Shown here piece by piece: positions 1 to 16,934 of a DNA stretch of 32,000 nt (its first letter is position 1; each line of letters starts with the position of its first letter). The stretch comes from Pirellula staleyi DSM 6068 (GTDB lineage: Bacteria > Planctomycetota > Planctomycetia > Pirellulales > Pirellulaceae). The position numbers and the translations under genes are program-made. The stretch lies in NCBI GenBank assembly GCA_000025185.1, contig CP001848.1:180001-212000 (forward strand), read 5' to 3'. The notes below the pieces were generated by a model. That model was not told the origin of the DNA, searched no databases, and was given only the letters and a program-made list of their open reading frames with translations.

Positions 1-1
1 C

Positions 2-313
2 CAGCGTCTGCGCGAAATTCCTGCGACGGAGCGAGTGTTTCTGTTCATCAATATTGCGGCCATCCATCAGCCGAACTGCGGCTATGTGCCGGGGGCCACG
101 GCCGATTCGCTGGCGACCCACCGGGCAGCGCTGCGCTACGTCGATCGCTCGCTCGCGCCGCTGCTGGCGACCCTGAAACGTCGCGCCCCCTTCTTTGCCA
201 TCGTCTGCAGCGATCACGGCACAGCTTATGGCGAAGATGGCTATCATGGTCATCGCCTCAATCACCCGGTGGTGGGTGAGGTCCCGTACTTCGATTTCCT
301 CTGGGAGAGTTAA
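2..313 (+). CDS. C-terminal fragment of an alkaline-phosphatase/sulfatase-superfamily hydrolase (resembles the STM4013/SEN3800-type hydrolase family); 5' end lies outside the window
   Basis: Frame is open from the window edge (QRLREIPATERVFLF...) to TAA at 311-313. The C-terminal 'IVCSDHGTAYGEDGYHGH' resembles the metal-ligand 'SDHG...GxHG' end of sulfatase/phosphodiesterase-type enzymes. It lies directly upstream of two radical SAM genes. Confidence 0.6.
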   Translation, partial: QRLREIPATERVFLFINIAAIHQPNCGYVPGATADSLATHRAALRYVDRSLAPLLATLKRRAPFFAIVCSDHGTAYGEDGYHGHRLNHPVVGEVPYFDFLWES

Positions 314-601
314 ACGCTGCTAGTACTCCGCCTATCGATCCATGTCATTTTTGAGGGTGCCACTGGCATCTTGTCAGTGCAGAAGTTGGAAGGGGATGTT
401 TTGGGCGAAAGCTGCCTCTAACACAGAGTCCATTGACACTTCTCACTGGGCAGAGCCCAGTGGCACACTCGATTGCAGTCTACTCATGTTTCCTGACATT
501 GATCGATAGACGGAGTACTGGCGCGCGACATCCGAGCGCACAGCACTCCATCAGCCGCACTTCCAAAGTGATCTCTCGTTCGAACACGTTCCGCCGAACC
601 T

Positions 602-1942
602 ATGCTCGCAACTCCACCCCACACCTTGCTCGATCAGCTGCACGGCGATCCATATGTCGGCTATGCCTATTCGTATCCGCATAAAACGGCCTATCGCGCG
701 CTCGAGCCACGCACTCTTGGCGAGGTGTGGGAGCACGAATCGCGCTCGGCCCTGTCGCTCTACATTCACATTCCGTTTTGCGAAATGCGTTGCGGTTTTT
801 GTAACCTCTTCACCTACTCGCAGCCGGCCGACGACTGGGTGGCAAACTACCTGAGCGCTCTGGGGCGTCAGATGGAAGTGGTCGCCGAGCAGATTCCAGC
901 AGCCCAGTTTGCGCAGCTGGCGCTTGGTGGCGGAACTCCCACCTTTCTGCAAACGGCGGAACTCGCCCAGTTGCTCGAGCAGCTGAAGCGAGTGCTCGAC
1001 GTTCCGCTGGGAAACCTGCCGATCTCGGTCGAAGCTTCCCCCGCCACCACCGACGACGAAAAATTCGCGCTGCTGCGGCACTATGGCGTCACGCGGCTGA
1101 GCCTCGGGATTCAGAGCTTCGATGCCGACGATCTTGGTGCCATCGGGCGTCCTCAGAAGCACGACGATGTAACCCGCGCCATCGAGCGCATCCGTCGCGC
1201 CGGTTTTCCGATCCTCAATCTCGACCTGATCTACGGCGGGGAAGCGCAAACGCGCCGAGGGTGGCTCGAGTCGCTCCGCGCAGCCGCGCAGTACGAACCC
1301 GAAGAACTCTATCTCTATCCGCTGTATGTTCGGCCACTTACCGGACTCGGATCGCGCCCCGCGAAAGCTCCCTCCGATCAGCGGCTCGAGCGCTACCGCG
1401 AAGCGCGCGACTGGCTCCTCGCGAATCAGTACGAGCAAGTTTCGATGCGGATGTTCCGCCGCATGGGCCCATGCGAACAGACGACAACCCGCTACGCTTG
1501 TCAGTCCGATGGGATGATTGGACTCGGCGTCGGAGCACGTTCCTATACACGTCAGCTGCACTACGCCTCGCGCTTTGCCGTGCGACAAAAATCGATCCTC
1601 GGCATCATTCGGAACTACATCGAGCAATCGCCCGCCGAGATGGGGACTGTCGCGCATGGCATCGAGCTCCACAACGAGGAGCAGCGCCGCCGCTACCTGC
1701 TCCTCTCGTTGCTGCAAGTCGAGGGGCTTGATGCGCGGGCTTATCAGCAGCATTTCGCCTCCGATCTCTGGAACGATTTTCCACAGCTGCGCGGGCTGGT
1801 CGATCACCACCTGGCCACCTTCGAAGGCGAGTTGCTAGCGCTCACTCCGGCAGGGCTCGAGCTTTCCGACGCGATCGGGCCGTGGCTCTACTCCAGCGAA
1901 ATCCGCGAGCGCATGGAGGGGTATGCATGGACCGATGCTTAA
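602..1942 (+). CDS. HemN/HemW-like (class C type) radical SAM protein, STM4012-like
   Basis: ATG at 602. 'YIHIPFCEMRCGFCNLF' is the CxxxCxxC radical SAM cluster motif in HemN context. 'LGGGTPT', 'RLSLGIQSF' and 'NLDLIYG' are typical HemN-family blocks. 446 aa. Confidence 0.85.
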   Translation: MLATPPHTLLDQLHGDPYVGYAYSYPHKTAYRALEPRTLGEVWEHESRSALSLYIHIPFCEMRCGFCNLFTYSQPADDWVANYLSALGRQMEVVAEQIPAAQFAQLALGGGTPTFLQTAELAQLLEQLKRVLDVPLGNLPISVEASPATTDDEKFALLRHYGVTRLSLGIQSFDADDLGAIGRPQKHDDVTRAIERIRRAGFPILNLDLIYGGEAQTRRGWLESLRAAAQYEPEELYLYPLYVRPLTGLGSRPAKAPSDQRLERYREARDWLLANQYEQVSMRMFRRMGPCEQTTTRYACQSDGMIGLGVGARSYTRQLHYASRFAVRQKSILGIIRNYIEQSPAEMGTVAHGIELHNEEQRRRYLLLSLLQVEGLDARAYQQHFASDLWNDFPQLRGLVDHHLATFEGELLALTPAGLELSDAIGPWLYSSEIRERMEGYAWTDA

Positions 1943-2790
1943 CCATCCTCTATCGCGGGCCACTGTCGAGTTGCAACTACGGCTGCGACTACTGCCCCTT
2001 TGCCAAACATCACGAAACGGCGGCTGAACTGGCGCTCGACCGGCAGCAGCTCGAGCGATTCGTCGACTGGGTAACCACGCGCACCGATCAGCGCTGCGAC
2101 ATCTTTTTTACTCCCTGGGGCGAGGCCCTTACGCGACGCTGGTATCGCGAGGCGATGGTCCGTCTGAGCTGGCAGCCGCACGTCCGGCGCGTCGCCGTGC
2201 AAACGAATCTTTCAGCCGATCTGCAGTGGCTCGAGAAGAGCGAGCGCGAGCGGATCGGGCTCTGGTGCACCTATCATCCGGGGGAAGTGACGCACGCTAA
2301 GTTCCTGGACCAGTGCGCGCAGCTGCAGCAGCTTTCCATCCGTTTTAGTGTCGGCGTGGTGGGGCTCCGCGAGCATGCCGCCGAGATCGCAGCCCTGCGC
2401 GCTGCGCTCGACCGGTCGATCTACGTTTGGATCAATGCCTACAAGCGCGAGGCAAACTACTATCGGCCCGAGGAGATCGAGCAGTTCGTGGCGATCGATC
2501 CCCTGTTTCGGATCAACAACACGCGCCACGCAAGCCTCGGGCAAAGCTGCCGCACGGGCGAAACGGTGATCGCGGTCGACGGCGCGGGGGACGTGCGCCG
2601 CTGTCACTTCGTCCCGACAATCATCGGCAATATCTACGAGCCCGATTTCGAAGCTTGTCTCCAGCCGCGCACGTGCCCCAATGCGACCTGCGGCTGTCAT
2701 ATCGGCTACGTCCATCTGCCTCATCTGGCGCTCGATGAAGTCTTCCGCGAAGGGATTCTCGAGCGGATTCCCGCTCCCCGCGAAGCCTGA
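1927..2790 (+). CDS. Small radical SAM protein with a Cys-rich SPASM/twitch-like C-terminus, STM4011-like
   Basis: ATG at 1927 overlaps the upstream stop (1940-1942) by 16 nt, consistent with translational coupling; the track's longer ORF starts at GTG 1882. 'SSCNYGCDYCPF' is CxxxCxxC. The C-terminus reads 'CRTGETVIAVDGAGDVRRCHF..IGNIY...CPNATCGCH'. Confidence 0.8.
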   Translation: MDRCLTILYRGPLSSCNYGCDYCPFAKHHETAAELALDRQQLERFVDWVTTRTDQRCDIFFTPWGEALTRRWYREAMVRLSWQPHVRRVAVQTNLSADLQWLEKSERERIGLWCTYHPGEVTHAKFLDQCAQLQQLSIRFSVGVVGLREHAAEIAALRAALDRSIYVWINAYKREANYYRPEEIEQFVAIDPLFRINNTRHASLGQSCRTGETVIAVDGAGDVRRCHFVPTIIGNIYEPDFEACLQPRTCPNATCGCHIGYVHLPHLALDEVFREGILERIPAPREA

Positions 2791-3005
2791 TCGCGCAGCC
2801 TGCATTCACAATTGTCGTTCAAAGATTGTGGAACCCTCGGCGAATACGTTGCACCCAGCGCTTCGGAAAATCGTTTTCTCGCGCTGCAGGTTCCCCGCTC
2901 GCCGACAAACCGCTAGATTCAGCGCTCACAGAATCAAGTTCAACCTCGCCGCGAAAATCTCGCTGCGGGTGCTCCCTTTACTGCGATGTTCACGAGGCAC
3001 AGCTG

Positions 3006-4106
3006 ATGGGTCCGCAACCGAGTGTCGACGAAGATTTAGCCGAGGGTCTGCGCGGAGCGAAAAAATCGCCACGCAACTTTGCGCTCATTTGCAAAGGCCC
3101 GAAGCCGGTCAAGTTGATCGTGCAGAAAAAACCGGTCCGCGCGGGGGAACTCACCAAGGCCAAAACCGAGTCGAAAGGGACCGAGGTGATCGTCGGCACT
3201 GTCGAAGGAGATGGTGCCGATCATGTTTTCTCGGTTGTGGGAGAGGTGCCGAATGTGAAAACGTCGGCGCTCAAAGAATTCATCTCCGAGCAAGCGGGGC
3301 TCACCTGCAAACCACGCTTTCAGTCGGTGAAGCAGCTGGTTTCCGTCGGCGACGACGAACCGGAAACGGGCGCATCGCAAAGCAATGAAACGAGCTCAAG
3401 CACTGCTACGACTACCAAAAATAATTCGGCGAGCGAGCAGGAAACAAACGAGTCAGAAGCCGAAGAGTCCAATGATCTCGCGGAAGCGCGGCAAAAGCTG
3501 CTCGACGCCCTGAAGGGATTGATGCCGACCCTGCAAAAAGTGATTGGCGAGCAGCCAGGCCGACGCATCGCGCTATTGACCGATGTCGATCAGATCAAAA
3601 AGCAGGTCGCCACCGATCTGGCCGCAGCCCAGCAAGCCTTCGACACGCTGGTCGCTTCGCTCGGCGAAAATAATTCGGGCAACAATGAAAGCGCCGAGGG
3701 GAGCAAGGTCTCGCTTGTGAAACTCGGAATCGCGCGGGTCGAGTGGCGCACCACGCGCGACACCGCTGGGGCCGATCTTCGCAAACTCAAAGCGGCGATT
3801 GCAGAAGAATTTGGAGACGACAGCGAGCAAGCAGGCGCGCTCACCGCCGCGATGAAAACACTCGACAACCTGACCGTCGAAGTCGAGAACAACCTGCACG
3901 AACAGCTCGATGCGATCCTTAACGCCGAGGCCCAAGCACGTGGTCCGCTCGTGAAAGCGGCCAAGGCGACGATCAGCAAACTGACGACGCTGCTCGATAA
4001 CGACGAAGTGATGGTGGAGATCGACGACAACGAGTTCCTTCCTGGCATGCTCGTCGTCGCTCCGCTGAAGAAGAAGCTGCAAGACATTTCGGCAGCGATC
4101 GGCTAG
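3006..4106 (+). CDS. Hypothetical protein: small N-terminal beta-rich region, acidic S/T/N-rich linker, helical C-terminal half
   Basis: First ATG in the ORF is at 3006 (MGPQPSVDEDL...); upstream of it the ORF reads as Arg/Cys-rich noise. Coding-like GC3 bias. I recognise no family. Confidence 0.6.
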   Translation: MGPQPSVDEDLAEGLRGAKKSPRNFALICKGPKPVKLIVQKKPVRAGELTKAKTESKGTEVIVGTVEGDGADHVFSVVGEVPNVKTSALKEFISEQAGLTCKPRFQSVKQLVSVGDDEPETGASQSNETSSSTATTTKNNSASEQETNESEAEESNDLAEARQKLLDALKGLMPTLQKVIGEQPGRRIALLTDVDQIKKQVATDLAAAQQAFDTLVASLGENNSGNNESAEGSKVSLVKLGIARVEWRTTRDTAGADLRKLKAAIAEEFGDDSEQAGALTAAMKTLDNLTVEVENNLHEQLDAILNAEAQARGPLVKAAKATISKLTTLLDNDEVMVEIDDNEFLPGMLVVAPLKKKLQDISAAIG

Positions 4107-4204
4107 CGCGAGCCACACCCGCGCGACGTTTTCATCCACCTCACTATCACGCCCACGCGAGCCCTCTGCTTCGCCGGCGCTCTTTCGCATAAAGCAAACC
4201 GATC

Positions 4205-7200
4205 ATGGACAATCCTAAGCAAAAACGTGGCCTCGCCTCCGCACTTCGCTTGCGTCGACGCGCTCGAGGAAGCAGTGCTCTGCCGCCACCTCCAGTGATC
4301 CCCCTGCCACCTGTGCCACAGCCACCCCAGCAGCCGCCGGTACAGCCAGTGGTGCAGCAGCCAGGCTGGGCCCCCGCGCAAAAAAATATCCCAGCCAATG
4401 CTAAAGATTTGGTGGGGGGCGCGCGGCAAATGGCGCTCGCCAAACAGCATTTCGAAAAGGGGCTGAAAGAGGAGATGCCGACGATCCACAAGGCTAAGCA
4501 ATTTGTGCTGACCGTCGATGCTGAACGTATTTCGCAAACCAAGATCAAAGACGATGCGCCGATCGTCGCAGAACTCACCAACCTCTCGACGCTGCTGCAG
4601 CAGCAGGCCAAGACCCTCGAAACGCACACCACCGCCGTCCGCGCCGCCGTGGCTAACAAGGACTTCATCGCCGCTGATACTGAGTTCACGGCCGCCCTCA
4701 CACTCTCCACCACCATGCTGGCGGAAGATGCCAATTTTCAGGCGATCCTGCAGCGACATGGAAAATCGCCGGTGCTCGACCTGGCCGGGGATCGCAAGAC
4801 GATTTCCTCCGCAGGCAAAGAGTTCCGCCGCCGACTCGCCCTTTCGCAAGGGGTGGTCGAAGAGTTGCTCCAAACCGAGTCCGATAACACCGCTGTGAAG
4901 AAGAATATCGCGGAGTTGCAAAAGTCGTACGACGCGATGCAGCAGGCCGATGGGGAGGAGAAGTTCGACGTCGCCGATGGTCTGCTCAACGAAGTTGTCG
5001 AGGACGCCGAGGTGGTGCGGATGCTGGTGAAAGCAGCGCAGCAGTTCGAGGAGTCGGTGGCCCAGCTCAAGCCCGAAATGACCATGGTGAAGAAGTTTCG
5101 CGTGGCCAATCCCACCGACGCTCAGATGGCTAGTCAAGCCTTGGCCATTGCCGCTCATCAGCGCGCGCTCTCGGCAGCCGATCGGGGGAACTTCGTGAAG
5201 GCGAGCGAGGAACTCGGGACCGCACGCGCGGCAGCCTTCGAGCTATTTCCCGACGGTGCCACCGAAGCCCGCGCGTTTGAGTTCGGCTGGCAACAATCGC
5301 TCCCTCGAATCGAGGAGGCGCTGCGGGTGACTAGCGATAGCCCGTATGCCCAAAAGCTGCAGCAGGGAATTCGGGATGTCAAAGCACAGATTGAGAAAGA
5401 TGCCGAGAAACTGAAGTTCGAACGCGCGAGCCTGACGATCGACGATGCCCTGCTGCTGGTGCAAGGTTTGCGCTATGCTGTCGCCGACTGGGAGGTCTAT
5501 GTCGGCTCGAAGGAGCGTGTCGAGAGCGTGATCGCAAGCGCCGACAAAGTGAGCGCTAATTCCGATGCGCAAAAAGCATTTCGCACCACCTATGTCGCAG
5601 CGATGCAGCAGGCGGAAGTGGCCATTCATGCTGGCGATTTCCCACTGTCGAAGCAAAAACTGGGAGAAGCGCAAGAGGCTGCCCTGGGACTCCTCGCCAC
5701 TGGTCCGGGGGCCGATGCCCTGCAGTACTTCACCGAGGTCGATGCCGAGCAGAGTCGCTTGAAAGCGGCCGATAAAATCGTCCCCAAGTGTGGCGTCGTC
5801 ACTGAGGCGAAAGAGGCCTACGACGAAGCGCGTGAGTTCCTCCGCGGCTCGGTCGATCGCGCAGAATTCGATAGCGCGCTGGCCGAACTCGATCTCTGCC
5901 GCACCCGCGCCTATCAGCTCGAAACCGAGCACAAAAAGTACGAAGCAATCGAGCGTCTGCAAAACAGTTATCAAAGCGTGCTCGATGCCGCAGCCACTGC
6001 CGATGTCACCTTGCCCGGTGTCGCGGCAGCCAAGAACGAGTTCGACGACAAGCTCGAGTTTGTCGCGCCGTTGCTCGATACCAATCTCGATCAAGCGCTC
6101 GTCAAACTCAAAGAAGCAGTGACTCTCGCCCACAAGGTGAATGGCCTCATCGAACAAGCAGCCAAGCAAAAGAGTCGCAAACAAGAGCTCGACCAAACGA
6201 TCGGTCTGGCAGGCAAAACGTACCTGCCACCCGGCTCTACCGACGAGCTCTCGAAGGGAACGGTCGCCGGGACCGATACGCTGTGGGATTTCTTCTTGAT
6301 TGCGTCGAGCGTAGCGGAAACGACGCGCGATGCCGCCAGCTTCACGAACCTCGAGCTGGCTGCGAAGTCCTGGCTCGCCGACTTAAAGGCCCGCGATCCC
6401 AACGACCCGCAAGATCCCCAAGTGGCCAAGCGCAAGCAGGCGTGCGAAACCGCTATCAAGCAAGCCAAGCACTTGAAACTCGCCGCCCGATTCAGCGAGC
6501 TCGGAGATCTTCCGTGGGATGCCGCCACCGAAGACAAAGCGGCCGACCTGCAGATGCAAGCGTTGTTTGAAACAGGCGACCGTCCGATGGAGCAAGCGGG
6601 CGATAGCGCGTTTGGTGCCAAGTGGATCGTGAGCCAGGACTTTGCCAATGGCGAAGGGAAACGCGAGTTCGTTTACAAAGCGGCCTTTGAAACCGATGCG
6701 TCCGAGATTCAAGGCTTCCCACGAGGGAGCGAACCGGTGCGCGAAGTGCTCGGTGACGAGCTCGCCAAACAACTCAAGGCGATGACCGGCCTGGAAATGA
6801 ACGTTCCCGAAACGCGTATCGTTTCAGTCGATAGCGAGAAACTCAATCCGGCCGATCCAGGGCGGAGTGTGATCGGCTCGGCGCAGGCAGCAGCGCCGAC
6901 CATCGGCAGCGTGGTGAAGCTGAAGGATTCGAATCCCGAGGCGATGAAAAAAGTGACTCCCAAATCGGCGCAGAAAGCCGCGCTGTTCGATGCCCTCGCG
7001 CTGAACGTCGATCGTCACGGCAACAATTTCCTCGTCACCCCTCCGGGCGAGTCGGGGGAGAGCGAACTGGTGCCGATCGACAACGGACTCGCCTTCCCAT
7101 CGCGGGAAGGGATGGAAGCGCGGCGCGGCCGCAATGCCTCGATGAGTGCCTTTTCCGATATCCGTTCGGCCTACGAACCGTTCGATCCCGAGATCCTCGC

Positions 7201-8338
7201 CGGAATCGAGATGATCGACGAAACCACGCTGATCGCCGGGATGAAAGCCCGCACCAATACGCTGCAAGCCGAGCAGCCCGCACTGAATGTGAAGACGGTC
7301 ACTCCCGACGCGCAGATGGATCTCCTGGCGCGGAACATCAAGTTCCTCAAGAAAGCGGCTCCGCGCGTTTCTCCAGCGGTGATGATGGACCTGCTGATGG
7401 AAAACGCCGTGGCGATTTTCGATTCCCCCGACGCTGATTTCGAGACTGCCATCGAAGCGGTGATCCAAAAGGGAGAAACTCGCGACAAGCACCTCGCTCC
7501 GCTGCTCGACATGACCGACGAGGAAAAACTGACGCTCTACACCGATCTGTGGAAGCTCGGATGGTGCCACGGCTACGGCAACCCACGCAAGAATCCCGGT
7601 GGCGCGGCCGCCACGCTGCTCTTCAAAGTCTGGTGCCTTCGGAACCCGCGCGAAGCGCTCACCCTCACGCGGCGCAAGAAGCCCAATCCAGCGATCCTGG
7701 CCGAAACGGCCCGCTATGTCCAAGAGATCAAAAACGTCGATCCGGCGAGCGACATCGACGCCAAACTCGCTGGCCTCTCTCCTTCCGAAGCACGCGACAA
7801 AGCCCATCTGGTCCTTCGCGGCGACATGATGAAGAAGGGGGTAAAGGAAGTGAAGCAGATCCAAAAACTCGAAGCCGACTTCCTGGTCGAATTCCCCGGC
7901 GAACCGTGGGATCCGCGCGACAGCGACGCCTATCGCCTCTATCAGAAGTACAACGCCAAAAGCTTTGCCGAGGTGAATGGCCAAAAACTCGACAACCTGC
8001 CCTTTGCTGATCGCTGGAATTTGCTCGAAGAATACCTGAAAAATCTCGAGAAAGAAGCACTCAAGGGAGAACTTGATGTCATTCGCCAATCCCCTCCGTT
8101 CCTCGAAATGAACGCCGCGTTTGGCAAGTATGGAGAGCGGGTCACTATTCCGAGCTACTACAAAACGGAAGCAGCCCTCGGCATGCTCACCGCTTGGGAA
8201 GAGCTGAAAGCGCTCGGTGGTATCACCGCCTTCATCGATTGCGGCGGCGACTGCGAAGCGATTGGTGGTGGACCGGAGTACATGCTCGCCGTCGTCCGGG
8301 GCGCTCGATCGGCCCAAGGCATCGACGTCGATGCATAA
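4205..8338 (+). CDS. Giant (1377 aa) protein: basic/Pro-rich N-terminus, about 7 degenerate ~75-80-aa helical repeats, then a PI3/PI4-kinase-family (type II PI4K-like) catalytic core and a ~400-aa unknown C-terminal region
   Basis: ATG at 4205 and a single uninterrupted ORF. Kinase-like motifs: 'EFVYKAAFE' (Lys codon 6677-6679), 'SEPVREVLGDELAKQL..EMNVPETRIV', 'LALNVDRHGNNFLV' (Asp codon 7010-7012), 'VPIDNGLAFP' (Asp codon 7079-7081). Confidence 0.85.
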   Translation: MDNPKQKRGLASALRLRRRARGSSALPPPPVIPLPPVPQPPQQPPVQPVVQQPGWAPAQKNIPANAKDLVGGARQMALAKQHFEKGLKEEMPTIHKAKQFVLTVDAERISQTKIKDDAPIVAELTNLSTLLQQQAKTLETHTTAVRAAVANKDFIAADTEFTAALTLSTTMLAEDANFQAILQRHGKSPVLDLAGDRKTISSAGKEFRRRLALSQGVVEELLQTESDNTAVKKNIAELQKSYDAMQQADGEEKFDVADGLLNEVVEDAEVVRMLVKAAQQFEESVAQLKPEMTMVKKFRVANPTDAQMASQALAIAAHQRALSAADRGNFVKASEELGTARAAAFELFPDGATEARAFEFGWQQSLPRIEEALRVTSDSPYAQKLQQGIRDVKAQIEKDAEKLKFERASLTIDDALLLVQGLRYAVADWEVYVGSKERVESVIASADKVSANSDAQKAFRTTYVAAMQQAEVAIHAGDFPLSKQKLGEAQEAALGLLATGPGADALQYFTEVDAEQSRLKAADKIVPKCGVVTEAKEAYDEAREFLRGSVDRAEFDSALAELDLCRTRAYQLETEHKKYEAIERLQNSYQSVLDAAATADVTLPGVAAAKNEFDDKLEFVAPLLDTNLDQALVKLKEAVTLAHKVNGLIEQAAKQKSRKQELDQTIGLAGKTYLPPGSTDELSKGTVAGTDTLWDFFLIASSVAETTRDAASFTNLELAAKSWLADLKARDPNDPQDPQVAKRKQACETAIKQAKHLKLAARFSELGDLPWDAATEDKAADLQMQALFETGDRPMEQAGDSAFGAKWIVSQDFANGEGKREFVYKAAFETDASEIQGFPRGSEPVREVLGDELAKQLKAMTGLEMNVPETRIVSVDSEKLNPADPGRSVIGSAQAAAPTIGSVVKLKDSNPEAMKKVTPKSAQKAALFDALALNVDRHGNNFLVTPPGESGESELVPIDNGLAFPSREGMEARRGRNASMSAFSDIRSAYEPFDPEILAGIEMIDETTLIAGMKARTNTLQAEQPALNVKTVTPDAQMDLLARNIKFLKKAAPRVSPAVMMDLLMENAVAIFDSPDADFETAIEAVIQKGETRDKHLAPLLDMTDEEKLTLYTDLWKLGWCHGYGNPRKNPGGAAATLLFKVWCLRNPREALTLTRRKKPNPAILAETARYVQEIKNVDPASDIDAKLAGLSPSEARDKAHLVLRGDMMKKGVKEVKQIQKLEADFLVEFPGEPWDPRDSDAYRLYQKYNAKSFAEVNGQKLDNLPFADRWNLLEEYLKNLEKEALKGELDVIRQSPPFLEMNAAFGKYGERVTIPSYYKTEAALGMLTAWEELKALGGITAFIDCGGDCEAIGGGPEYMLAVVRGARSAQGIDVDA

Positions 8339-8370
8339 CCCCCGTGCCCGTGACAAAAAATAACCTGCGT

Positions 8371-8392
8371 AGCAGCAGCCTGCTGCTTTTTA
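8371..8392 (+). terminator. Putative rho-independent terminator after the giant gene
   Basis: agcagca-gcc-tgctgct stem-loop (8371-8387) running into a T5 tract, 33 nt after the stop at 8338. Confidence 0.5.
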
Positions 8393-8396
8393 ACTT

Positions 8397-8426
8397 GGAG
8401 GCCGCTGCTACAACGTAGCGGCCTCC
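8397..8426 (+). terminator. Second GC-rich hairpin, possibly a tandem or bidirectional terminator element
   Basis: ggaggccgct (8397-8406) pairs with agcggcctcc (8417-8426), leaving a 10-nt loop. No U-tract follows. Confidence 0.3.
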
Positions 8427-8450
8427 ACAGCCACACTCCGCCACGCTTGT

Positions 8451-8918
8451 ATGGCCATCGCGATTGAACGACTCATCGAGCGTCCCGAGTGCCTTCCGCT
8501 CTTGGCCGACTGGCTGCTGGCCGAGTGGCCCGAGTCGGTCGGTCATGCGCGCTCCGAAGCGCTCATCAACATGGCGGGGCGCACCAACCTTCACCGCTTG
8601 CCCCTCGGGCTCGTGGCGTTCGACGATGGTTGGCCGGTCGGCATGGCGACCTTAGCCCTCGACCGAGCACCGCCGGAACTCGAGTTCAAAACGGCTTATC
8701 TCCCCTGCCTCACCACGCTGTATGTCGATCCACCGGCGCGCAGGCGCGGCATCGGCACGCTGCTGTGCGACGCCATCGCCGGCGAAGCAGCCCGACTCGG
8801 CCGGAGCGAAATTTTTCTCTACACCCTCGACGCCGCCGAGTTCTACCGCGCCCGAAACTGGCAGCAGCTGACCGATGCCACCCCCGTCTTCATGCGCCGC
8901 TCCCTTGCCACCTCGTAA
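8451..8918 (+). CDS. GNAT-family N-acetyltransferase
   Basis: ATG at 8451, 155 aa. 'LYVDPPARRRGIGTLLCDAIAGEAARLG' matches GNAT motif A (R/Q-x-x-G-x-G/A) in the acetyl-CoA binding region. Confidence 0.85.
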   Translation: MAIAIERLIERPECLPLLADWLLAEWPESVGHARSEALINMAGRTNLHRLPLGLVAFDDGWPVGMATLALDRAPPELEFKTAYLPCLTTLYVDPPARRRGIGTLLCDAIAGEAARLGRSEIFLYTLDAAEFYRARNWQQLTDATPVFMRRSLATS

Positions 8919-9146
8919 TAGACATCGATCGAGTGGAACAACTGGCATTTGCGCGCCACCAACTGCAAGCAGCTTGATCCCCCACGAAATCGGTAAAAAA
9001 GCCTTGTGTCGCGGTCGCCGCCCCCTAGAATCCAGCGATGTTGGTTCGAGCAGCGCTGGAGCGCCGAGTTGAAGCTCCAGCGAAAAAAATCGAGCGCTAT
9101 GAATCCGCGATTCGTCTTCGTGCGTCAGCGTCAGGAACATGTCTCT

Positions 9147-11768
9147 ATGTCCAACGACCTTGCAAGCAACTCCAACGCCGAAGCCGAGGCCTGGGTCAAG
9201 GAGGTGCGTCGCATCCTGAAGCGGATGGCGCTGCGGCTCGCCACGGAGGCCTCGCTCGAAGAGGCCGACCGCGCTGATGAAGCGAATCTGGCCGAAGGGA
9301 TTCGGCAATCAGAAACGCTGAAACAAGAACAAGACCAAGTTCGGTTTGCGACGAACCAAATCGCCATCCAAGAGCTGACAGCGGTCGCCAGTTTGCTCAC
9401 CCCCGTCACCCCGAAGTTTGCGCAGCTGATCGAAACCTATAGCGCCGCGAAGCTCGTGTTCGATAGCGCCGCTGCTGAAGCGGAAGCCAATGAAACCTAC
9501 GAGCCATTTTTTTCCGACCAAATCGCGTTTCAGAAAGAGGTTGAGACCCTCGTCGGACTGCAGCCCGAGCACGATCAGCTTGTTGCTGCCAAAACGGAGA
9601 TCGAGCAGTGGCAAACGACCGAGTCGTCGAAGGTCGACGATGTGGTGAAGCTGACCTCGCTTCCTTCCCTGCTGCTTGCAGCGCAAAGCAAACTCGCCAC
9701 GCTCTACGACACGCTGAAGCTCCAAATCGAGCAGAGCGAGTATCTCACCGCGAAAGGTTTGCTGGCCGATGTCGACGCGCACCTCAGCTTGTACGGCGAT
9801 GCCCAAGTAGCGCATGCGCAGGCCAAGGAATCGTGCGATACCGCCTGGTATCAAAACGTGGAGACGATACTCCAGCAAGCGCGCCAGGTGCCCACCGCAA
9901 CCGGACTCGCCACTGAATTCAGCGAACTCGAGAAAGCAGCGCAGGCCAGCTACGACGAGTACAACAAGCAGGAATATGCCGAAGCTCAAAAATTGCAGCA
10001 GGCGATCATTGATAAAGCGCAGCTCCTGATCGAGAAGAACAAACTGAAGGTCGCTTGCGATTTCGCCTGGATTCAAAACGTTCAGCCGACCTTCTCGGAA
10101 GCGCAGCAAGTTCCCAATGTCCCCGGGTTGAACAAAGAGATTGGCGAGTTCAACAGCGCGTGCACGGAGAGCAACAACAAGTATTATGCGGGCGAGTATG
10201 TCGAAGCGCAAAAATTGCATCAGACGATCGTCGATAAAGCGCAGCTCCTGATCGAGAAGAACAAGCTGAAGATCGCCTGCGATAACGCCTGGAATCAAAA
10301 TGTCCAGGCAATTTACTCGGAAGCGCAGCAAGTCCCGAACGTCTCCGGGATGCAAAAGGAGGGTGGCGAGTTTGTAAACGCATTTACCGCAAGCAACAAC
10401 AAGTATTTTGCGGGCGACTATGCCGAAGCACAAAAGCTGCAGCAGGCGATCATCGATAAAGCACAGCTCCTGATCGAGAAGAACAAGCTGAAGATCGCCT
10501 GCGATAACGCCTGGAACCAGAACGTCAGCGCTTCCTACCTGCAAGCGCGAAAAGTGGGTGTCGTCCCTGAACTGAAGACTGCGATCGAAGCCCTCGACCT
10601 CGCCATGAAAGCGAGCAACGACGAGTACAACAAGGGAGCGTATGCCGAGGCGCAAAAGTTCCACCCGGCGATCGTCGAAAAAGCCAAAGAGCTCATTCAA
10701 GCTGGCGCAACCACGATGCTTGTGGCGCGTCCCGAAATTGGCTCGACCCAAGAGTTACTGGCAACTTCGAAGCTCAACTTGATGTCGACCGACGATCAAC
10801 AACTCGTCACCGAATTGATCGACAAAGCGCCGACCGAAAAGCATAAGCAGAACCTTCGCAAAGCGGTTGCGAGCGGCCACTCGGCGAAAGAAATCTCCGA
10901 TTTCGCCGCGAAAATTCGCTTCAAAGATGAAAAGTGGATTCAGGAAAACTTGCACGTCACCGTCACCAGTTCAGGGAAAGGCATTCAGCAGCAATTCAAA
11001 ATGTCGTGCCAGGCAACCATGGTGCAGGCGGTTCGTGCGGAGCTCGATCCGATCTATGCCCTGCAGTTGCACGAAGAAAATTTCGATATCACCCAAGTGG
11101 GCAAAAGCGAGCAGACCGAGCTTGCACGTGAGCAAAAGAAGATGCTCGAAACCGACTGGGCCGAACTCAACACCACCTACGAGAGTCAAGCCAAACAGCG
11201 GATGGACAACGAAGACCCGACAACGAAACTAGCGCTCGAGCAACTTTTGGCCACCGCTACGACGAACAACGAGAAGAATCAGCTGAACTACGAAATCGGT
11301 CGCGCCGAGAAATTTTCTCCCGATGTCCTCAAGGCGTGGTTCGATAAAGATGTCAAGGGAAAGCGTTCCTCGGCGGGTGTCGCCGTGCATATAGGGAACC
11401 CAAGCCCCGAACATGGTCGCGGCCGAACAGGAGTCGATCTCCTCAACAAGAACCAAGCCAGCACCGGGCTGAAGTACGAGCAAGTCCTGGTCAATGACAG
11501 CACGCGCGAAGCAGCAGTCAACGACATCACCGCCGAGCTCATGCTCGGACGTCCGGTCCCACTCACGGTCGGTAGCTTCGAAGGACAGACGGCCCACTAT
11601 GTCCTGGCCCTCGGCATTGTGCCGGGCAATCCCAAGTCGATCATCATTCACGATCCCGGTACTGGCACCACCGTGATGCGGACCGAAGATCAGCTGAAGA
11701 ACAATCAAATGGATCTCCCCTCGACCTGGGGCCGCCTCACCGACTACGTCAAACCGACGCCGATTTAA
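9147..11768 (+). CDS. Large helical-repeat protein with four 74-aa tandem repeats and a C-terminal papain/C39-like cysteine peptidase domain
   Basis: ORF is open from GTG 9006. Candidate starts are ATG 9099 (MNPRF...) and ATG 9147 (MSNDLASN...), so the start is uncertain. C-terminal 'QQQFKMSCQATMV' (Cys codon 11007-11009), 'TAHYVLALG' (His codon 11595-11597) and 'IIIHDPGTG' (Asp codon 11652-11654) resemble the Q..C / HYV / I.DP pattern of C39-type peptidases. Confidence 0.8.
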   Translation: MSNDLASNSNAEAEAWVKEVRRILKRMALRLATEASLEEADRADEANLAEGIRQSETLKQEQDQVRFATNQIAIQELTAVASLLTPVTPKFAQLIETYSAAKLVFDSAAAEAEANETYEPFFSDQIAFQKEVETLVGLQPEHDQLVAAKTEIEQWQTTESSKVDDVVKLTSLPSLLLAAQSKLATLYDTLKLQIEQSEYLTAKGLLADVDAHLSLYGDAQVAHAQAKESCDTAWYQNVETILQQARQVPTATGLATEFSELEKAAQASYDEYNKQEYAEAQKLQQAIIDKAQLLIEKNKLKVACDFAWIQNVQPTFSEAQQVPNVPGLNKEIGEFNSACTESNNKYYAGEYVEAQKLHQTIVDKAQLLIEKNKLKIACDNAWNQNVQAIYSEAQQVPNVSGMQKEGGEFVNAFTASNNKYFAGDYAEAQKLQQAIIDKAQLLIEKNKLKIACDNAWNQNVSASYLQARKVGVVPELKTAIEALDLAMKASNDEYNKGAYAEAQKFHPAIVEKAKELIQAGATTMLVARPEIGSTQELLATSKLNLMSTDDQQLVTELIDKAPTEKHKQNLRKAVASGHSAKEISDFAAKIRFKDEKWIQENLHVTVTSSGKGIQQQFKMSCQATMVQAVRAELDPIYALQLHEENFDITQVGKSEQTELAREQKKMLETDWAELNTTYESQAKQRMDNEDPTTKLALEQLLATATTNNEKNQLNYEIGRAEKFSPDVLKAWFDKDVKGKRSSAGVAVHIGNPSPEHGRGRTGVDLLNKNQASTGLKYEQVLVNDSTREAAVNDITAELMLGRPVPLTVGSFEGQTAHYVLALGIVPGNPKSIIIHDPGTGTTVMRTEDQLKNNQMDLPSTWGRLTDYVKPTPI
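9834..10721 (+). repeat. Four in-frame tandem repeats of 222 bp (74 aa) inside the 9147-11768 CDS
   Basis: Cys codons of the 'ACD.AW.QNV' block recur at 9834, 10056, 10278 and 10500, exactly 222 bp apart. The block 'gataaagc(g/a)cagctcctgatcgagaagaacaa(a/g)ctgaag' recurs at 10011, 10233 and 10455. The two middle copies are nearly identical at DNA level. Confidence 0.9.
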
Positions 11769-11867
11769 GTACTCTCTCGGATGCACCACGCGAGTGGCAG
11801 CACCACTCCTTGGCGCGACACGACATCACCACAGCCCATCAGGGCGAAAGCATAGTTGGGTAAACGC

Positions 11868-12362
11868 ATGGCGAACGATCTCAATCCCCATCAGCTCCTC
11901 GCGCGGCGACCGACGGAGTACCTCCGAGCAGGTTTCTTTGACCCGCCAGGAAGTCTGCGCGCGAGCTTGCTCGGGATCGATGCCTTTGCTGTCGCCACGC
12001 AGCTGATGCAGGGAGCCGCCTCGCCCGACGAAGTGACGATCACCTACGAGGCACTCCGCCAGCTGGTCGAGCAGCAGCCCGCCGGCGCAACTCCCCAGCG
12101 GCTCGGCGTTGCCCTCCCCGAAGCGCTGCAGCTGGTGCGGCGCATGCTCGGGATCGAGAACAACGATACCCTCGCCGCTTGGCTTTTCGATTGCCAGCCG
12201 TTTGTGCGAACCGACGACGATCTGCGCGCCTTTTTCGACCATTTTCAGGCTGTTTTACGGCAATACACGTCGCTCCTCGGCGTCAGCACTCCCCCCGCTG
12301 CTGACGCTGCTAACCCAAGCCCCGACGCACCAAGCCCCGACGCGCCGGGCGCCGAAGGCTAA
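11868..12362 (+). CDS. Hypothetical 164-aa protein with a Pro/Ala/Ser/Asp-rich tail (PSPDAPSPDAP)
   Basis: ATG at 11868 (the track ORF starts at TTG 11856), 99 nt after the protease-domain gene on the same strand. Coding-like composition. No recognisable family. Confidence 0.55.
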   Translation: MANDLNPHQLLARRPTEYLRAGFFDPPGSLRASLLGIDAFAVATQLMQGAASPDEVTITYEALRQLVEQQPAGATPQRLGVALPEALQLVRRMLGIENNDTLAAWLFDCQPFVRTDDDLRAFFDHFQAVLRQYTSLLGVSTPPAADAANPSPDAPSPDAPGAEG

Positions 12363-12529
12363 CAACCTCCCATCGCGCGCATGCTTCCCAGCTTCTCTTT
12401 ACGAGGCTGGCCCGTTTTGCTACCAGTCGCACCGGCGAGGTCCCGCTGCGCGCAAACACCGCGCGCTGCTGTCACTCGGTGCTCTGCGCGACGAACTGAG
12501 TTCAACGCTGAACATCAGTCAAATTTCAC

Positions 12530-12551
12530 CCCAGGTTGCTTGCAACCTGGG
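12530..12551 (+). terminator. GC hairpin, a possible terminator for the upstream island
   Basis: cccaggttgc-tt-gcaacctggg is a near-perfect palindrome in the 284-bp gap before glf. No U-tract follows. Confidence 0.3.
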
Positions 12552-12646
12552 CCGCGAAGCGGCAAGAGGGACTGTAGCGACTGACCGACCACGTTGGCTC
12601 CAGCACGAACTTACCACTGCATTTAGTTTCACCCTAGAAAAACGCC

Positions 12647-13792
12647 ATGAAGCCGTCACCGAAACAGCGACCCGACTACTTAGTCGTCGGCAGCGGCTTC
12701 TTCGGAGGAGTCTTCGCGCGCGTGATGGCCGAGCATGGTTTGCGCTCACTCGTAATCGATCGCCGCCCCCACTTGGCGGGCAATTGCTACACCCAATCGC
12801 AACATGGAATCGAGGTCCATCAGTACGGGCCTCACATTTTTCATACCAGCGACGAGCGCGTGTGGAAGTTCGTCAATCGCTTCGCCAAGTTTCATCACTA
12901 CATCCATCGCGTCGTCGCCCGCTATGGCGAAACGACCTATTCATTTCCCATCAACCTGAAAACACTCGAGCAGCTGTGGGGAGTCCGCACTCCTGAGGAA
13001 GCCGCCGCGCGACTCCAAGCCGAATGCATCCCTCACGCGCAGCCTCAGAACTGCGAAGAGTGGCTGCTGGCCAACGTCGGTCGGCAAATCTACGAGACCT
13101 TTTTCGAGGGCTATACCACCAAACAGTGGAACCGCTCTCCCGCCGAACTCCCCGCGTCGATTGTCCGCCGAATTCCGATCCGTCTGGCCGACAACGATCG
13201 CTATTTTGACGACCGCTTCGAAGGGATTCCGATTGGCGGCTACACGCGGCTGTTTGAAAACCTGCTCGATCACCCGCTGATCGAAATCGAGACCGGTGTC
13301 GATTATCTGGCGAGTCGCAAGGAGCTATCGAGCATTGCCCCGAGCCTGGTTTATAGCGGCGCGATCGATGAGTTTTTTGACTATCGCTTCGGAGCCCTCG
13401 ACTATCGTTCGCTCCGTTTTGTTTCGGAAGTTATTGACGGCGACTATCAAACGACGGCGATTGTGAACTACACCAGCGCCGCTGTCCCGTTCACACGAAT
13501 CACCGAGCATAAACACTTTGCCGGAACACAGTCGAGCAAGAGCGTCATCACGCGCGAATATCCCGACGACTATGCTCCTGGTAGGACCCCCTACTATCCG
13601 GTGCGCGATCCGCAGAATGTCGCGCGCTACGAGCAATATCGTCGGCTGTCGCTGCAGCTGCCGGTGATTTTTGGGGGGCGACTCGGGAGCTATCAGTATT
13701 TCGACATGCACCAGGTGATTGCCCAGGCGCTGAGCAAAGCGGAAGCGGAACTCGCGCTGCGCGGTCAGGTGCAACAGCGACGAGCCGCCTAA
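12647..13792 (+). CDS. glf: UDP-galactopyranose mutase
   Basis: 'DYLVVGSGFFGGVFA' Rossmann FAD motif, 'HLAGNCYT', 'VHQYGPHIFHT' and 'YPV..P.N' blocks; the 381-aa length is typical of Glf. Confidence 0.9.
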   Translation: MKPSPKQRPDYLVVGSGFFGGVFARVMAEHGLRSLVIDRRPHLAGNCYTQSQHGIEVHQYGPHIFHTSDERVWKFVNRFAKFHHYIHRVVARYGETTYSFPINLKTLEQLWGVRTPEEAAARLQAECIPHAQPQNCEEWLLANVGRQIYETFFEGYTTKQWNRSPAELPASIVRRIPIRLADNDRYFDDRFEGIPIGGYTRLFENLLDHPLIEIETGVDYLASRKELSSIAPSLVYSGAIDEFFDYRFGALDYRSLRFVSEVIDGDYQTTAIVNYTSAAVPFTRITEHKHFAGTQSSKSVITREYPDDYAPGRTPYYPVRDPQNVARYEQYRRLSLQLPVIFGGRLGSYQYFDMHQVIAQALSKAEAELALRGQVQQRRAA

Positions 13793-13856
13793 CCGTGCGC
13801 GCCTTCGGGGCAATAAACCAGCACCATCACCACGACGATAGAATCTCACCGACTCC

Positions 13857-14726
13857 ATGCCTCATCACTTGACAAACTCGAGCAGCGCGAGCCCCGCATC
13901 GACCGGTCGACGCTGGCTCGTGATTTCACCGGTCGGTGACCGCTCGTGTCACTCGAGCTGGATAACCGGTCGCCCCCAGCGGCAGTTCGACTTGATGCTG
14001 ATCTACTTTGGGGATCAGCCGCACTACGATTTTGGCGGGGCCGAACATCAGCTGCGGCGCAAGGGATTTAAATACCATTTGCTCGCCAGTGTGGTGGAAG
14101 AATATCGCGAACTTCTCGCGCAGTACGACACCATCTGGCTCCCCGACGACGACATCCGCACGACCCCGCGCGAGATCCACCAGCTCTTTGAAATCTTCGA
14201 GCGGCAGCTGCTGCTGGTGGCTCAGCCGGCAATTGCGTCGGGGGTGATTTCGTACCAAAGTTTGCGGCAACAGCGGCGCACGCTGCTGCGCTACTCGCCG
14301 CTGGTCGAAGTGATGTGCCCGATTTTTGCGCGCGACTATTTTTTGCAATCGAGCGCGCTCTTTCGCGAGAATCAATCGGCGTGGGGGATCGACTGGATCT
14401 GGTCGAATCGCTGTGCGGCCTCTCAGCGCGCGGTGATCGATGCGGTCGGCGTGCACCACACCGGTGTGCTGATGCAGGGAGACCTCTATCAAAAATTGAA
14501 AGCGCGAGGGATCAATCCGACCGAAGAGTTCCACGCTCTGGTCGAGCGCCATGGTGGCATCGACTGGTCGGTCCATCGTCAGCTGATCGAAGGGACCTTA
14601 CCGATGGAGCGCATCGCAGCGGCTGGTCCGCTACTTGCGCTCTGGCAGCGTCTGACGAATCAGCGCGTGACGAATCAGCGTCTCGCGCTGCCGCGCCCGC
14701 AAGCTACATCGCAAAGCGCAGCTTAA
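13857..14726 (+). CDS. DUF707-like protein (putative glycosyltransferase-like, function unknown)
   Basis: ATG at 13857. 'YDTIWLPDDDI....EIFERQLLLVAQPA' resembles the DUF707 core (xxD[ED]D followed by 'SQPAL'). Adjacent to glf. Confidence 0.55.
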   Translation: MPHHLTNSSSASPASTGRRWLVISPVGDRSCHSSWITGRPQRQFDLMLIYFGDQPHYDFGGAEHQLRRKGFKYHLLASVVEEYRELLAQYDTIWLPDDDIRTTPREIHQLFEIFERQLLLVAQPAIASGVISYQSLRQQRRTLLRYSPLVEVMCPIFARDYFLQSSALFRENQSAWGIDWIWSNRCAASQRAVIDAVGVHHTGVLMQGDLYQKLKARGINPTEEFHALVERHGGIDWSVHRQLIEGTLPMERIAAAGPLLALWQRLTNQRVTNQRLALPRPQATSQSAA

Positions 14727-14753
14727 ACACCCGCATCTCAGCTGCGGCCTGCC

Positions 14754-16907: not shown

Positions 16908-16934
16908 ATCGAAAACTCCGAACTGATTTCATCT

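Follow-up and report, generated by a model that had tools for sequence, protein, structure and literature searches.

Five same-strand genes of Pirellula staleyi DSM 6068 (Psta_0144 to Psta_0148, positions 3006–12362 of the window, the whole 32-kb stretch of DNA that was analysed) are annotated as 'hypothetical' apart from one GNAT gene, and they raise the question of whether they form one undescribed system or several, and what their products would do. A preliminary description had treated them as a single five-gene island. The open reading frames that it listed are all present on the plus strand: g1 (Psta_0144, 366 aa, 3006–4106), which is helper- or adaptor-like; g2 (Psta_0145, 1377 aa, 4205–8338), a large effector-like protein with a PI4K-like kinase; g3 (Psta_0146, 155 aa, 8451–8918), a GNAT acetyltransferase; g4 (Psta_0147, 873 aa, 9147–11768), a polymorphic-toxin-type effector with a papain-like Cys protease; and g5 (Psta_0148, 164 aa, 11868–12362), a small acidic protein and partner of the g4 protease. 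As described, they lie between HemN-like radical SAM genes upstream and glf downstream, and four of them have no obvious family, since Pfam and NCBIfam are blank for g1, g4 and g5 and the match to g2 is sub-threshold. A search around the region for tRNAs and flanking repeats found none, in agreement with the reported absence of mobile-element boundaries, and the 32-kb window contains no secretion-system genes, none having been recognised earlier either. We consider that the region probably consists of two adjacent, separable effector cassettes, A (g1 and g2) and B (g4 and g5).

The basic, Pro-rich N-terminus of g2 leads into a helical-repeat region (together 4205–6277), a type II PI4K-like kinase core follows at about 6602–7234, and a helical C-terminal region extends to 8335. 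The catalytic codons are K825 (6677–6679), D936 (7010–7012), N941 (7025–7027) and D959 (7079–7081). Pfam gives PI3_PI4_kinase at 22.0 bits, below the cutoff of 27.1, and homologues are few, about 6 in 5.8 billion proteins and, counted as loci across very large databases, about 10. Foldseek, given a structure model of g2 (pLDDT 74.8), ranks human PI4KII alpha and beta (PDB 4hnd, 4hne and 4wtv; E 1.8e-7, TM 0.61 on the target) first among solved structures. A profile search of the PDB with the g2 family finds type II PI4Ks and nothing else, and the DRxxxN, IDNGLAFP and LPQ..FS motifs align in register. Identity to these enzymes is 16–19%, with sequence E-values of 0.1–0.4 that are not significant alone, and g2 differs from them in having ~800 extra N-terminal and ~250 extra C-terminal residues. 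K825, D936, R937, N941 and D959 are invariant across every g2-family alignment. The fold matches and the invariant catalytic residues uphold the PI4K-like kinase head first proposed from the sequence, and the active part of g2 is probably a type II PI4-kinase-like domain in which the residues for phosphotransfer are intact.

Phosphoinositide kinases are known as bacterial effectors from Francisella OpiA, a T6SS PI3K effector (PMC7641602, PMC8208517), and Rickettsia Risk1 (PMC7298712). g2, too, is a large bacterial protein with the look of a delivered effector, and it contains a catalytic domain of the PI3/PI4-kinase fold. OpiA and Risk1 are PI3K-like, whereas g2 resembles type II PI4Ks (PI4K2A, PI4K2B) and its activity is predicted; they come from intracellular pathogens, whereas P. 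staleyi is a free-living freshwater planctomycete; and g2, unlike either, has a dedicated upstream helper. PI3K/PI4K-like domains also occur in tailed-phage proteins, including fusions to MuF head-morphogenesis proteins.

The helper, g1, consists of an N-domain (3006–3341), an acidic low-complexity linker (3342–3500) and a helical C-terminal domain (3501–4103) that ends in IDDNxF..PL..L..I; searches of Pfam, NCBIfam, PHROG and the PDB gave no match. A g1-like gene stands directly upstream of the g2 homologue in all ten loci for which upstream DNA is available (the window, L001 to L006, and L029, L030 and L031). The order in L005 is vgrG (with Phage_GPD, Phage_base_V and Gp5_trimer_C domains), a DUF6931 gene, a g1 homologue (43% identity) and a g2 homologue. 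The verrucomicrobial locus L009, from Pedosphaera, has four g1-type N-domains, one of them fused to a bona fide member of the kinase family (E 3e-85), and the gene after this fusion encodes ImpA_N/TssA. We infer that g1 is a dedicated helper whose helical C-terminal domain would, judging by gene order, bind g2, and that its N-domain would couple the pair to a secretion apparatus, because the same N-domain is found fused to the kinase in L009.

Should g2 be an effector, it could still be a protein kinase toxin like HipA or CtkA that acts against bacteria, with the GNAT as its antidote. Pfam gives a weak HipA_2 match to g2 (E 0.0029), the protein kinase CtkA of H. pylori is among the fold matches, and the MuF proteins to which PI3K/PI4K-like domains are fused are a known polymorphic-toxin carrier acting on bacteria. 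g3 itself is securely an acetyltransferase, as had been claimed (Pfam Acetyltransf_1, E 9.3e-11, 42.5 bits where the cutoff is 20.7), and it travels with g1–g2 through three contexts, lying 3' of the kinase in L004, L001 (62% identity) and L006 (41% identity) with different downstream surroundings each time. Against an antidote, L002, L003, L005, L009 and L029 to L031 lack the GNAT, and the more distant kinase loci have no other conserved downstream gene in its place. A terminator-like hairpin also separates g2 from the GNAT, and both by fold and by sequence g2 is closest to type II PI4Ks specifically, C-lobe motifs included. The protein kinase toxin is thus possible but unlikely, and the GNAT is better regarded as a lineage-specific companion of g1–g2, confined to the Pirellula-like clade.

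In the second cassette, g4 has a helical N-terminal region with four 74-aa (222-bp) repeats (9831–10718), and its C-terminal 353 aa (10707–11765) comprise a helical lid and a papain-like Cys protease with catalytic codons Q614 (10986–10988), C621 (11007–11009), H817 (11595–11597) and D836 (11652–11654). Pfam and NCBIfam give nothing, and no Pfam family, Tox-PL models included, reaches E<=1. The model of the C-terminal domain is good (pLDDT 90.5, pTM 0.87) and its top Foldseek matches are all papain-like, led by bacterial toxin domains; the list includes the toxin/immunity pair 9l5u, CdiA-CT (8ssk, 8ssm), staphopain, cathepsin L, C39-like proteins and GtgE, with modest E-values, 2e-3 at best. 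Across the family Q and C are invariant, H is nearly so and an IHDP motif is largely conserved, so the Cys-protease head that had been read from the sequence stands.

A search at E<=1e-3 returns 359 relatives of the domain, and the N-termini that carry it vary: VgrG, eCIS-core, ADP-ribosyltransferase, annexin or a signal peptide. Of the 29 long family members, six have eCIS_core, three have annexin and two ART toxin domains, there is a single VgrG fusion and a single protein with T6SS_Tse3_N, and others have Sec signal peptides. Papain-like domains are established in polymorphic toxin systems as Tox-PL1, PL2, PL3 and PLC39 (PMC3482391), and papain-like toxin/immunity pairs are exemplified by 9l5u (DUF4150-linked) and CdiA-CT/CdiI of Citrobacter rodentium. 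g4 shares with them the fold and the Gln/Cys/His(/Asp) set, the C-terminal position of its domain type on varied carriers, among them VgrG and an eCIS (PVC) metallopeptidase, and a small cognate gene directly downstream. It differs in a ~90-residue helical N-terminal extension, a ~50–75-residue insert of its own, the lack of a Tox-PL model match and fold E-values of about 2e-3. The C-terminus of g4 is, in our judgement, probably a papain-like Cys/His protease toxin domain carried behind a variable helical-repeat region. In P0119, P0137 and P0152 other toxin domains (kinase, ADP-ribosyltransferase) follow the protease domain or flank it on both sides, a placement which suggests that it serves there as a releasing peptidase, in the manner of the internal cysteine protease of MARTX-type multi-effector toxins. 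A MARTX-type structure, 6ii0, is among the weak profile matches of the protease; unlike in MARTX, the g4 protease is terminal and the only catalytic domain, and in sequence it is unrelated to the MARTX CPD.

In 20 of the 22 protease loci from a genome scan, tblastn placed a g5 homologue (25–47% identity) directly downstream of the protease gene and on the same strand, with a gap of -4 to +51 bp in most of them. These loci span at least six phyla (Proteobacteria, Verrucomicrobia, Acidobacteria, Planctomycetes, Chloroflexi and Myxococcota). g5 has no match in Pfam, NCBIfam or the PDB, and its family has no known relative. A minus-strand ORF at 11826–12242, called in a MAG, is spurious; plus-strand coding of g5 is settled by the same-strand homologues 3' of the protease gene. 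The order of g5 after g4 is a toxin–immunity pattern, and g5 is most likely an immunity protein or inhibitor that, to judge from gene order, would bind and neutralise the g4 protease in the producer. The preliminary description, which recognised no immunity gene, was probably mistaken on this point.

Do the two cassettes nevertheless belong to one system, in which, for instance, the kinase regulates the protease or the protease processes the kinase? The five genes are contiguous and on one strand, A and B are neighbours again in L009, and P0119 combines a related kinase domain with the protease domain in one protein. The two large proteins had also been said to share the same TPR-like repeat motif. 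The best BLASTP E-value between them is 0.13, an HMM built from the 74-aa repeat of g4 gives the g2 N-terminus 3.6 bits, which is inside the range of shuffles (maximum 6.0), and Pfam TPR models match neither protein. Profile–profile alignment of their N-terminal regions gives a weak in-register signal at 33% probability (score 27.3, controls 15.9–17.3 +/- 2.6 with a maximum of 24.4). The repeat likeness is therefore a resemblance rather than a demonstrated homology.

Comparative genomics shows conserved linkage within the g1–g2 and g4–g5 pairs and not across all five genes. In L001, from a related Pirellula, g1–g2–GNAT and the downstream synteny are kept while g4–g5–glf–DUF707 is missing; L002, L003, L005 and L029 to L031 have the kinase without the protease; 21 of 22 protease+g5 loci lack the kinase; and the GNAT is confined to one clade. 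Two hairpins follow g2 on the plus strand (8369–8428), much where they had been predicted, with a folding energy of -40.9 kcal/mol against -29.0 +/- 3 for shuffles (z = -3.97); the first (8369–8387) is followed by TTTTT and is terminator-like, and the second (8396–8428) has a 13-bp stem. Because of the split in L001, the kinase-free protease+g5 loci and the hairpin after g2, we do not regard the five genes as one system, and a single integrated system is improbable. The idea of swappable heads survives in a weaker form, in that g1-type helper genes stand upstream of differing large proteins and one protein elsewhere joins a related kinase to the protease domain; the common scaffold that it assumed for g2 and g4 is unproven. 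Separable as they are, the two cassettes do recur together: as neighbours in P. staleyi and L009, through the P0119 fusion, and with g1-like genes close to the protease+g5 pairs of L009, L014 and L024.

The effector or polymorphic-toxin reading offered at the outset gains from the carriers of the protease and from the kinase-module homologues that adjoin vgrG (L005) and tssA (L009). T6SS effectors are known from vgrG–adaptor–cargo(–immunity) modules, and secreted 'tether' adaptors are defined by N-terminal MIX, FIX or RIX domains. The vgrG–DUF2169–DUF4150 module is one example (10.1101/740209). Our locus resembles such modules in the small helper directly upstream of a large cargo, the vgrG–helper–cargo order of L005, the L009 helper N-domain that is found both by itself and as a fusion with an effector, and the immunity-like gene 3' of the protease. 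It differs in that g1 matches no known T6SS adaptor or marker family (MIX, FIX, PAAR, DUF4123, DUF1795 and DUF2169 were not detected in g1, g2 or g4 with Pfam/NCBIfam) and in that the window has no T6SS gene. The kinase module is linked to T6SS genes in two relatives only; the other g1–g2 pairs and most protease+g5 pairs are orphans among housekeeping genes, the kinase has no conserved immunity partner at its loci, and secretion is a prediction.

g1, g2 and g4 also lack signal peptides, housekeeping genes lie on both flanks, downstream synteny is kept between two Pirellula species and the best fold match of g2 is a eukaryotic membrane-trafficking kinase, all of which would suit endogenous planctomycete proteins, with the kinase making phosphoinositides for the cell's own endomembranes and the others as cytoplasmic partners. 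Against this, the kinase family is extremely rare and patchy (about 10 loci) and no conserved trait of planctomycetes, vgrG and tssA adjoin it in relatives, and the neighbouring cassette comes from a toxin family that is found in many phyla and has a cognate gene downstream. We find an endogenous role distinctly improbable. An anti-phage or abortive-infection system built on the kinase and protease, as had been suggested, is highly improbable: some defence systems do fuse kinases or proteases to helical repeat sensors and the tailed-phage PI3K/PI4K-like domains give some phage connection, but PADLOC models gave no hit for any of the five proteins, the neighbours are housekeeping rather than defence genes, the locus has no NTPase, nuclease or sensor domain, and fusion of the protease domain to secretion or trafficking modules and toxins is atypical of defence sensors.

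The two cassettes are, we believe, an undescribed kind of toxin/effector module and contribute new effector families, probably among those that contractile injection machinery delivers, with a T6SS as the presumptive route in P. staleyi. g2 would be the cargo protein delivered into a neighbouring cell, where the kinase would phosphorylate a putative membrane phosphoinositide substrate (less likely a protein), and the delivered protease would cleave a putative target protein.

The five plus-strand open reading frames reported in the preliminary description are present in the window, which comes from Pirellula staleyi DSM 6068: g1 (3006-4106, Psta_0144), g2 (4205-8338, Psta_0145), g3 (8451-8918, Psta_0146), g4 (9147-11768, Psta_0147) and g5 (11868-12362, Psta_0148). 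A scan of the five proteins against Pfam, NCBIfam, PADLOC and PHROGs recognised the GNAT encoded by g3, plus a sub-threshold PI3/PI4-kinase signature in g2, and a literature search found no description of these five genes. A HemN-like gene and a second radical-SAM gene lie on the 5' side of g1, and g5 is followed by glf, a DUF707-like gene and genes for ornithine decarboxylase, a hydrolase, MetRS and menaquinone (Mqn); the remaining genes of the window are housekeeping genes, with KdsB and CTP synthase among the neighbours. Both hairpins downstream of g2 are confirmed, the first with a T-run behind it, and around the region we found no mobile-element boundaries, as already described, and no tRNAs or flanking repeats. 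The AT skew of the plus strand is strongly positive (0.15-0.29) over g1, g2 and g4 (window 3001-12000) and close to zero elsewhere, and GC falls to 0.52 at 10-11 kb of the window; these features could reflect the composition of helical proteins rich in Glu, Lys, Gln and Asn, or foreign origin. The suggestion that the genes form an anti-phage system finds no support, as PADLOC matches none of the five proteins and the neighbors are housekeeping genes with no defence island.

The evidence favors two modules, g1-g2 and g4-g5, over the single five-gene island that had been proposed. Another Pirellula-like genome (L001, with a g2 of 48% identity) carries g1-g2-GNAT without g4 and g5, and directly behind them comes the ornithine decarboxylase, hydrolase, MetRS and MqnA block that the window also has. 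Because this locus also lacks glf and the DUF707-like gene, the interval from about 9000 to 14726 of the window is variable between species. An unrelated 125-aa minus-strand gene (L001 14663-15040) with no Pfam match occupies the place of glf and the DUF707-like gene (window 12647-14726). Elsewhere, protease genes paired with a g5 homologue are mostly without a nearby kinase gene, and kinase pairs mostly without a nearby protease gene. On the side of a linked set, both modules are adjacent again in a verrucomicrobial locus (L009), g1-like genes lie near protease-g5 pairs in L009, L014 and L024, and one chain (P0119) joins the protease domain to a kinase core related to g2; because both families are rare, their recurrence together is unlikely to be due to chance, which suggests that the two modules may share a delivery route or target setting. 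The GNAT (42.5 bits against Pfam Acetyltransf_1, cutoff 20.7, E 9.3e-11) is found behind the kinase gene in the window, L004, L001 and L006 only, and appears to move with g1-g2 in its clade since the downstream context differs at each of these loci.

We regard g4-g5 as a well-supported and probable pair of a papain-like protease toxin (873 aa) with its putative cognate neutralising partner (164 aa). The C-terminal domain of g4 gives a confident predicted model (pLDDT 90.5, pTM 0.87) whose leading Foldseek matches are nearly all of the papain fold: the best, 9l5u, belongs to a T6SS-type toxin/immunity pair (probability 1.00, with a modest E of 2e-3) and is followed by CdiA-CT, staphopain, cathepsin L, calpain, C39-like proteins and GtgE. 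Across the family Q614/Q615 and C621 are invariant, the Gln lying six residues before the Cys, H817 is nearly so, and D836 falls in a largely conserved IHDP; this agrees with the clan CA set of an oxyanion Gln before the nucleophilic Cys, with His and Asp/Asn further downstream. In sequence searches, g4 has nothing in Pfam at E<=1, and thus no peptidase, C39 or Tox-PL family; phmmer of g4 against the PDB has no match, and a profile of the domain yields sub-significant PDB matches only, for example a C39-like chain at E 0.013. As no Pfam peptidase or Tox-PL model matches it, we consider the protease family undescribed.

A genome scan gave 22 protease loci, and in 20 of them tblastn placed a g5 homologue just after the protease stop codon. 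The 22 loci belong to Burkholderiales, Acetobacteraceae, Rhodospirillales, Azospirillum, Verrucomicrobia, Bryobacterales, Planctomycetota, Anaerolineae and Myxococcota. The gap between the protease gene and g5 is -4 to +51 bp in most of the 20 and up to 213 bp in the rest. This gene order is the pattern of toxin-immunity genes. The g5 family has no Pfam relative, and its PDB profile search returned designed helical bundles or noise. A 138-aa minus-strand ORF that overlaps g5 (window 11826-12242; L004 12902-13318) was called as a gene in a MAG annotation. Conservation of the plus-strand product across phyla shows that it is a shadow ORF and proves g5 to be coding on the plus strand; this corrects the annotation of the related MAG, in which the g5 homologue had been missed and the spurious minus-strand ORF called instead.

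Searched exhaustively with phmmer, the C-terminal 353 residues of g4 gave 359 representative relatives of 83-3926 aa, in which the protease domain is mostly C-terminal behind unrelated N-termini. Among 29 long members analyzed with Pfam, six carry eCIS_core, one is fused to VgrG and one to PI3_PI4_kinase, and others contain T6SS_Tse3_N, an ART toxin, annexin or TPR; about 13 of the short members begin with a Sec signal peptide. One chain of 2309 aa from a JGI/ENA metagenome (P0119) combines annexin repeats, a kinase core related to g2 (E 2e-10 and 2.6e-11) and the protease domain. In two members, P0137 (3926 aa) and P0152, the domain is placed before an ADP-ribosyltransferase toxin domain. Such architectures hint that it might serve as a releasing peptidase in multi-domain toxins. 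Separately, about 21 of 145 family members (P0014, P0024, P0033, P0057 and P0086 are examples) have the motif (E/Q)(H/Q)(D/N)xW(V/I/L)xxx(L/F)G(V/I) within their first 20 residues, and the g4 N-terminus (window 9147-9250) has a look-alike, AEAEAWVKEVRRIL. This motif, which matched no named signal, may direct export or loading.

The preliminary description had also joined g2 and g4 through a shared TPR-like repeat, which is not demonstrable, neither protein having a TPR match in Pfam. The g4 repeats (window 9831-10718) are genuine tandem units of 222 bp (74 aa). A close-strain MAG protein (P0005, L004 10001-12844; 92% identity over the best local alignment) is 947 aa long and has exactly one unit more than the 873-aa protein of DSM 6068, so the repeat region is length-variable within the species. 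For the shared repeat there is a weak in-register hhalign alignment of the g2 and g4 N-terminal regions at 2-33% probability, whose score of 27.3 against a maximum of 24.4 exceeds all 82 of 82 controls. Against it, an HMM of the g4 repeat scores within the shuffle range on g2, the best BLASTP E between the two proteins is 0.13, and neither BLASTP nor all-against-all BLAST found N-terminal similarity between kinase-class and protease-class proteins. The best BLASTP segment is due to a 19-nt stretch encoding AQKLQQ(G/A), 95% identical between g2 (window 5348-5366) and a g4 repeat (window 10428-10446), which is too short for chance and shared ancestry to be separated.

The other module, g1-g2, is in our judgment an equally well-supported and probable helper-cargo pair. 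The cargo would be g2 (1377 aa), whose family is very rare: searching 5.8 billion proteins twice and scanning metagenomes once gave about ten loci. Its similarity to type II PI4-kinases emerges from several comparisons. In Pfam g2 reaches 22.0 bits against PF00454, below the cutoff of 27.1, and family members pass it: the L009 kinase with 28.6 bits and the related P0119 with 33.1 bits. PF00454 is also precomputed for P0002, P0004, P0007 and P0008. The predicted model of residues 692-1377 (pLDDT 74.8) has human PI4KII alpha or beta as all of its best six Foldseek matches in the PDB (E 1.8e-7 to 2.2e-5), and a profile of the kinase family against all PDB sequences finds type II PI4Ks only, at weak E values of 0.1-0.4, with the alignment in register over DRxxxN, IDNGLAFP and the subsequent LPQ..F motif; phmmer of g2 against the PDB gave no match. 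K825, D936, R937, N941 and D959, corresponding to the ATP-binding Lys, the DRxxxN catalytic loop and the Mg-binding Asp of IDxG (the DFG equivalent), are invariant throughout the family alignments and in register with TDRGNDN and IDNGLAFP of PI4K2B. Because these residues are invariant, the enzyme looks active. The substrate may be a lipid or a protein; Pfam also gives a weak HipA_2 match, and H. pylori CtkA is among the fold matches. Residues 841-976 (window 6725-7132) match the phage family phrog_3162, of unknown function, at E 1.9e-7, and the model also resembles proteins with PI3K/PI4K domains from uncultured tailed phages, including one fusion to a MuF head-morphogenesis domain. In L002, a convergent SMI1_KNR4 gene (4464-5228, minus strand), of a SUKH-type family associated with immunity, comes directly behind a distant g2 homologue; in this lineage alone it might be a candidate immunity gene for the kinase.

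The helper role would fall to g1 (366 aa). A g1-like gene lies directly 5' of the kinase gene wherever upstream sequence exists, that is, in the window and in nine other loci (L004, L001, L005, the frameshifted L006, L002, L003, L029, L030 and L031). The family alignment shows three conserved parts, namely an N-domain (about 110 aa), an acidic or Pro-rich linker and a helical C-terminal domain (about 140 aa) closing with IDDNxF..PL..L..I; a family profile against the PDB retrieved designed helical bundles or noise and nothing else. As is seen for secreted T6SS adaptors, the N-domain of the helper is at times fused to the cargo. In L009, a Pedosphaera MAG, four g1-type N-domains are present, two in full g1-like genes, one stand-alone and one at the N-terminus of a bona fide member of the kinase family. 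The fused N-domain scores 38 bits, where shuffles reach at most 6.2, and the protein matches the kinase HMM at E 3e-85. The genes of this locus run in the order g1-like gene, unknown 959-aa protein, stand-alone g1 N-domain, g1-like gene, protease, g5-like gene, g1N-kinase fusion, then directly an ImpA_N/TssA gene and an FGE-sulfatase-domain protein; the stretch (1-17050, JAQGPC010000112) has the appearance of an effector island beside tssA. The 959-aa protein, which has no Pfam or PDB match, may be another head. A Spartobacteria MAG (L014 3240-6218) has a g1-like gene (435 aa) followed by a Gly-rich 548-aa protein with no match in a PDB search, a candidate for another helper-cargo pair, and a protease-g5 pair adjoins them. 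Among 150 protease-family representatives we found no g1 N-domain or g5 domain fused inside the protein.

Delivery of a T6SS type is plausible for these proteins, if somewhat short of probable, and this view draws on two related loci and on the protease-family fusions. In L005 the order is vgrG, DUF6931, g1 homologue, g2 homologue, with vgrG 1.1 kb upstream; by their gene neighborhoods, L005 and L009 would tie the g1-g2 pair to type VI secretion. The L005 DUF6931 ORF (6231-6440) is truncated and covers Pfam model positions 86-145 only, and both L005 and L006 look rich in frameshifts, with the kinase gene in pieces. In a 2026 preprint, DUF6931 is named as an immunity gene, SsdA-like, with a position downstream of vgrG (10.64898/2026.06.19.733351). 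The T6SS links of the relatives are vgrG in L005 and tssA in L009, the other kinase loci being orphan pairs, and within the 32-kb window there is no vgrG, hcp, PAAR or T6SS core gene. MIX, FIX, PAAR/DUF4150, DUF4123, DUF1795 and DUF2169 are absent from g1, g2, g4 and g5 in Pfam and NCBIfam. We also considered T6SS neighbors for the alphaproteobacterial protease loci and rejected them, the upstream genes being housekeeping (PurL, MurJ, RlmJ and a histidine kinase). T6SS have been reported in some Planctomycetes (PMC5394234, PMC6461901), and P. staleyi is among the organisms of a survey that used VgrG BLAST to gather its genomes, no more than a hint (10.1101/740209).

A more far-reaching reading, which we think unlikely as a whole, makes the g1 N-domain an unrecognised loading domain of a new contractile-injection (probably T6SS) class of adaptors and effectors in Planctomycetes and Verrucomicrobia, with the PI4KII-like kinase, the papain-like protease and the unknown 548-aa and 959-aa proteins as its heads, and the kinase a genuine type II PI4-kinase used by free-living bacteria against eukaryotic grazers. 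If true, g2 would be without precedent as a type-II-like PI4K effector, and no effector of its sort would have been known before from anything but intracellular pathogens.

As a kind of system, both injected effector cassettes and polymorphic toxin-immunity pairs are well known (PMC3482391); neither Pfam nor the literature that we searched describes the four families or the helper-fusion logic. If our interpretation is correct, the locus would add four uncharacterised families with testable roles, none with a Pfam model: a helper/adaptor, an effector kinase of type II PI4K-like character, a papain-like toxin domain that occurs in six phyla or more, and its cognate partner. The g4 C-terminal domain and g5 would then form a compact putative toxin-inhibitor pair, the g1 N-domain would be a possible new secretion marker for mining genomes, and effector biology would extend to Planctomycetes and Verrucomicrobia, in which the weapons used between organisms have hardly been studied.
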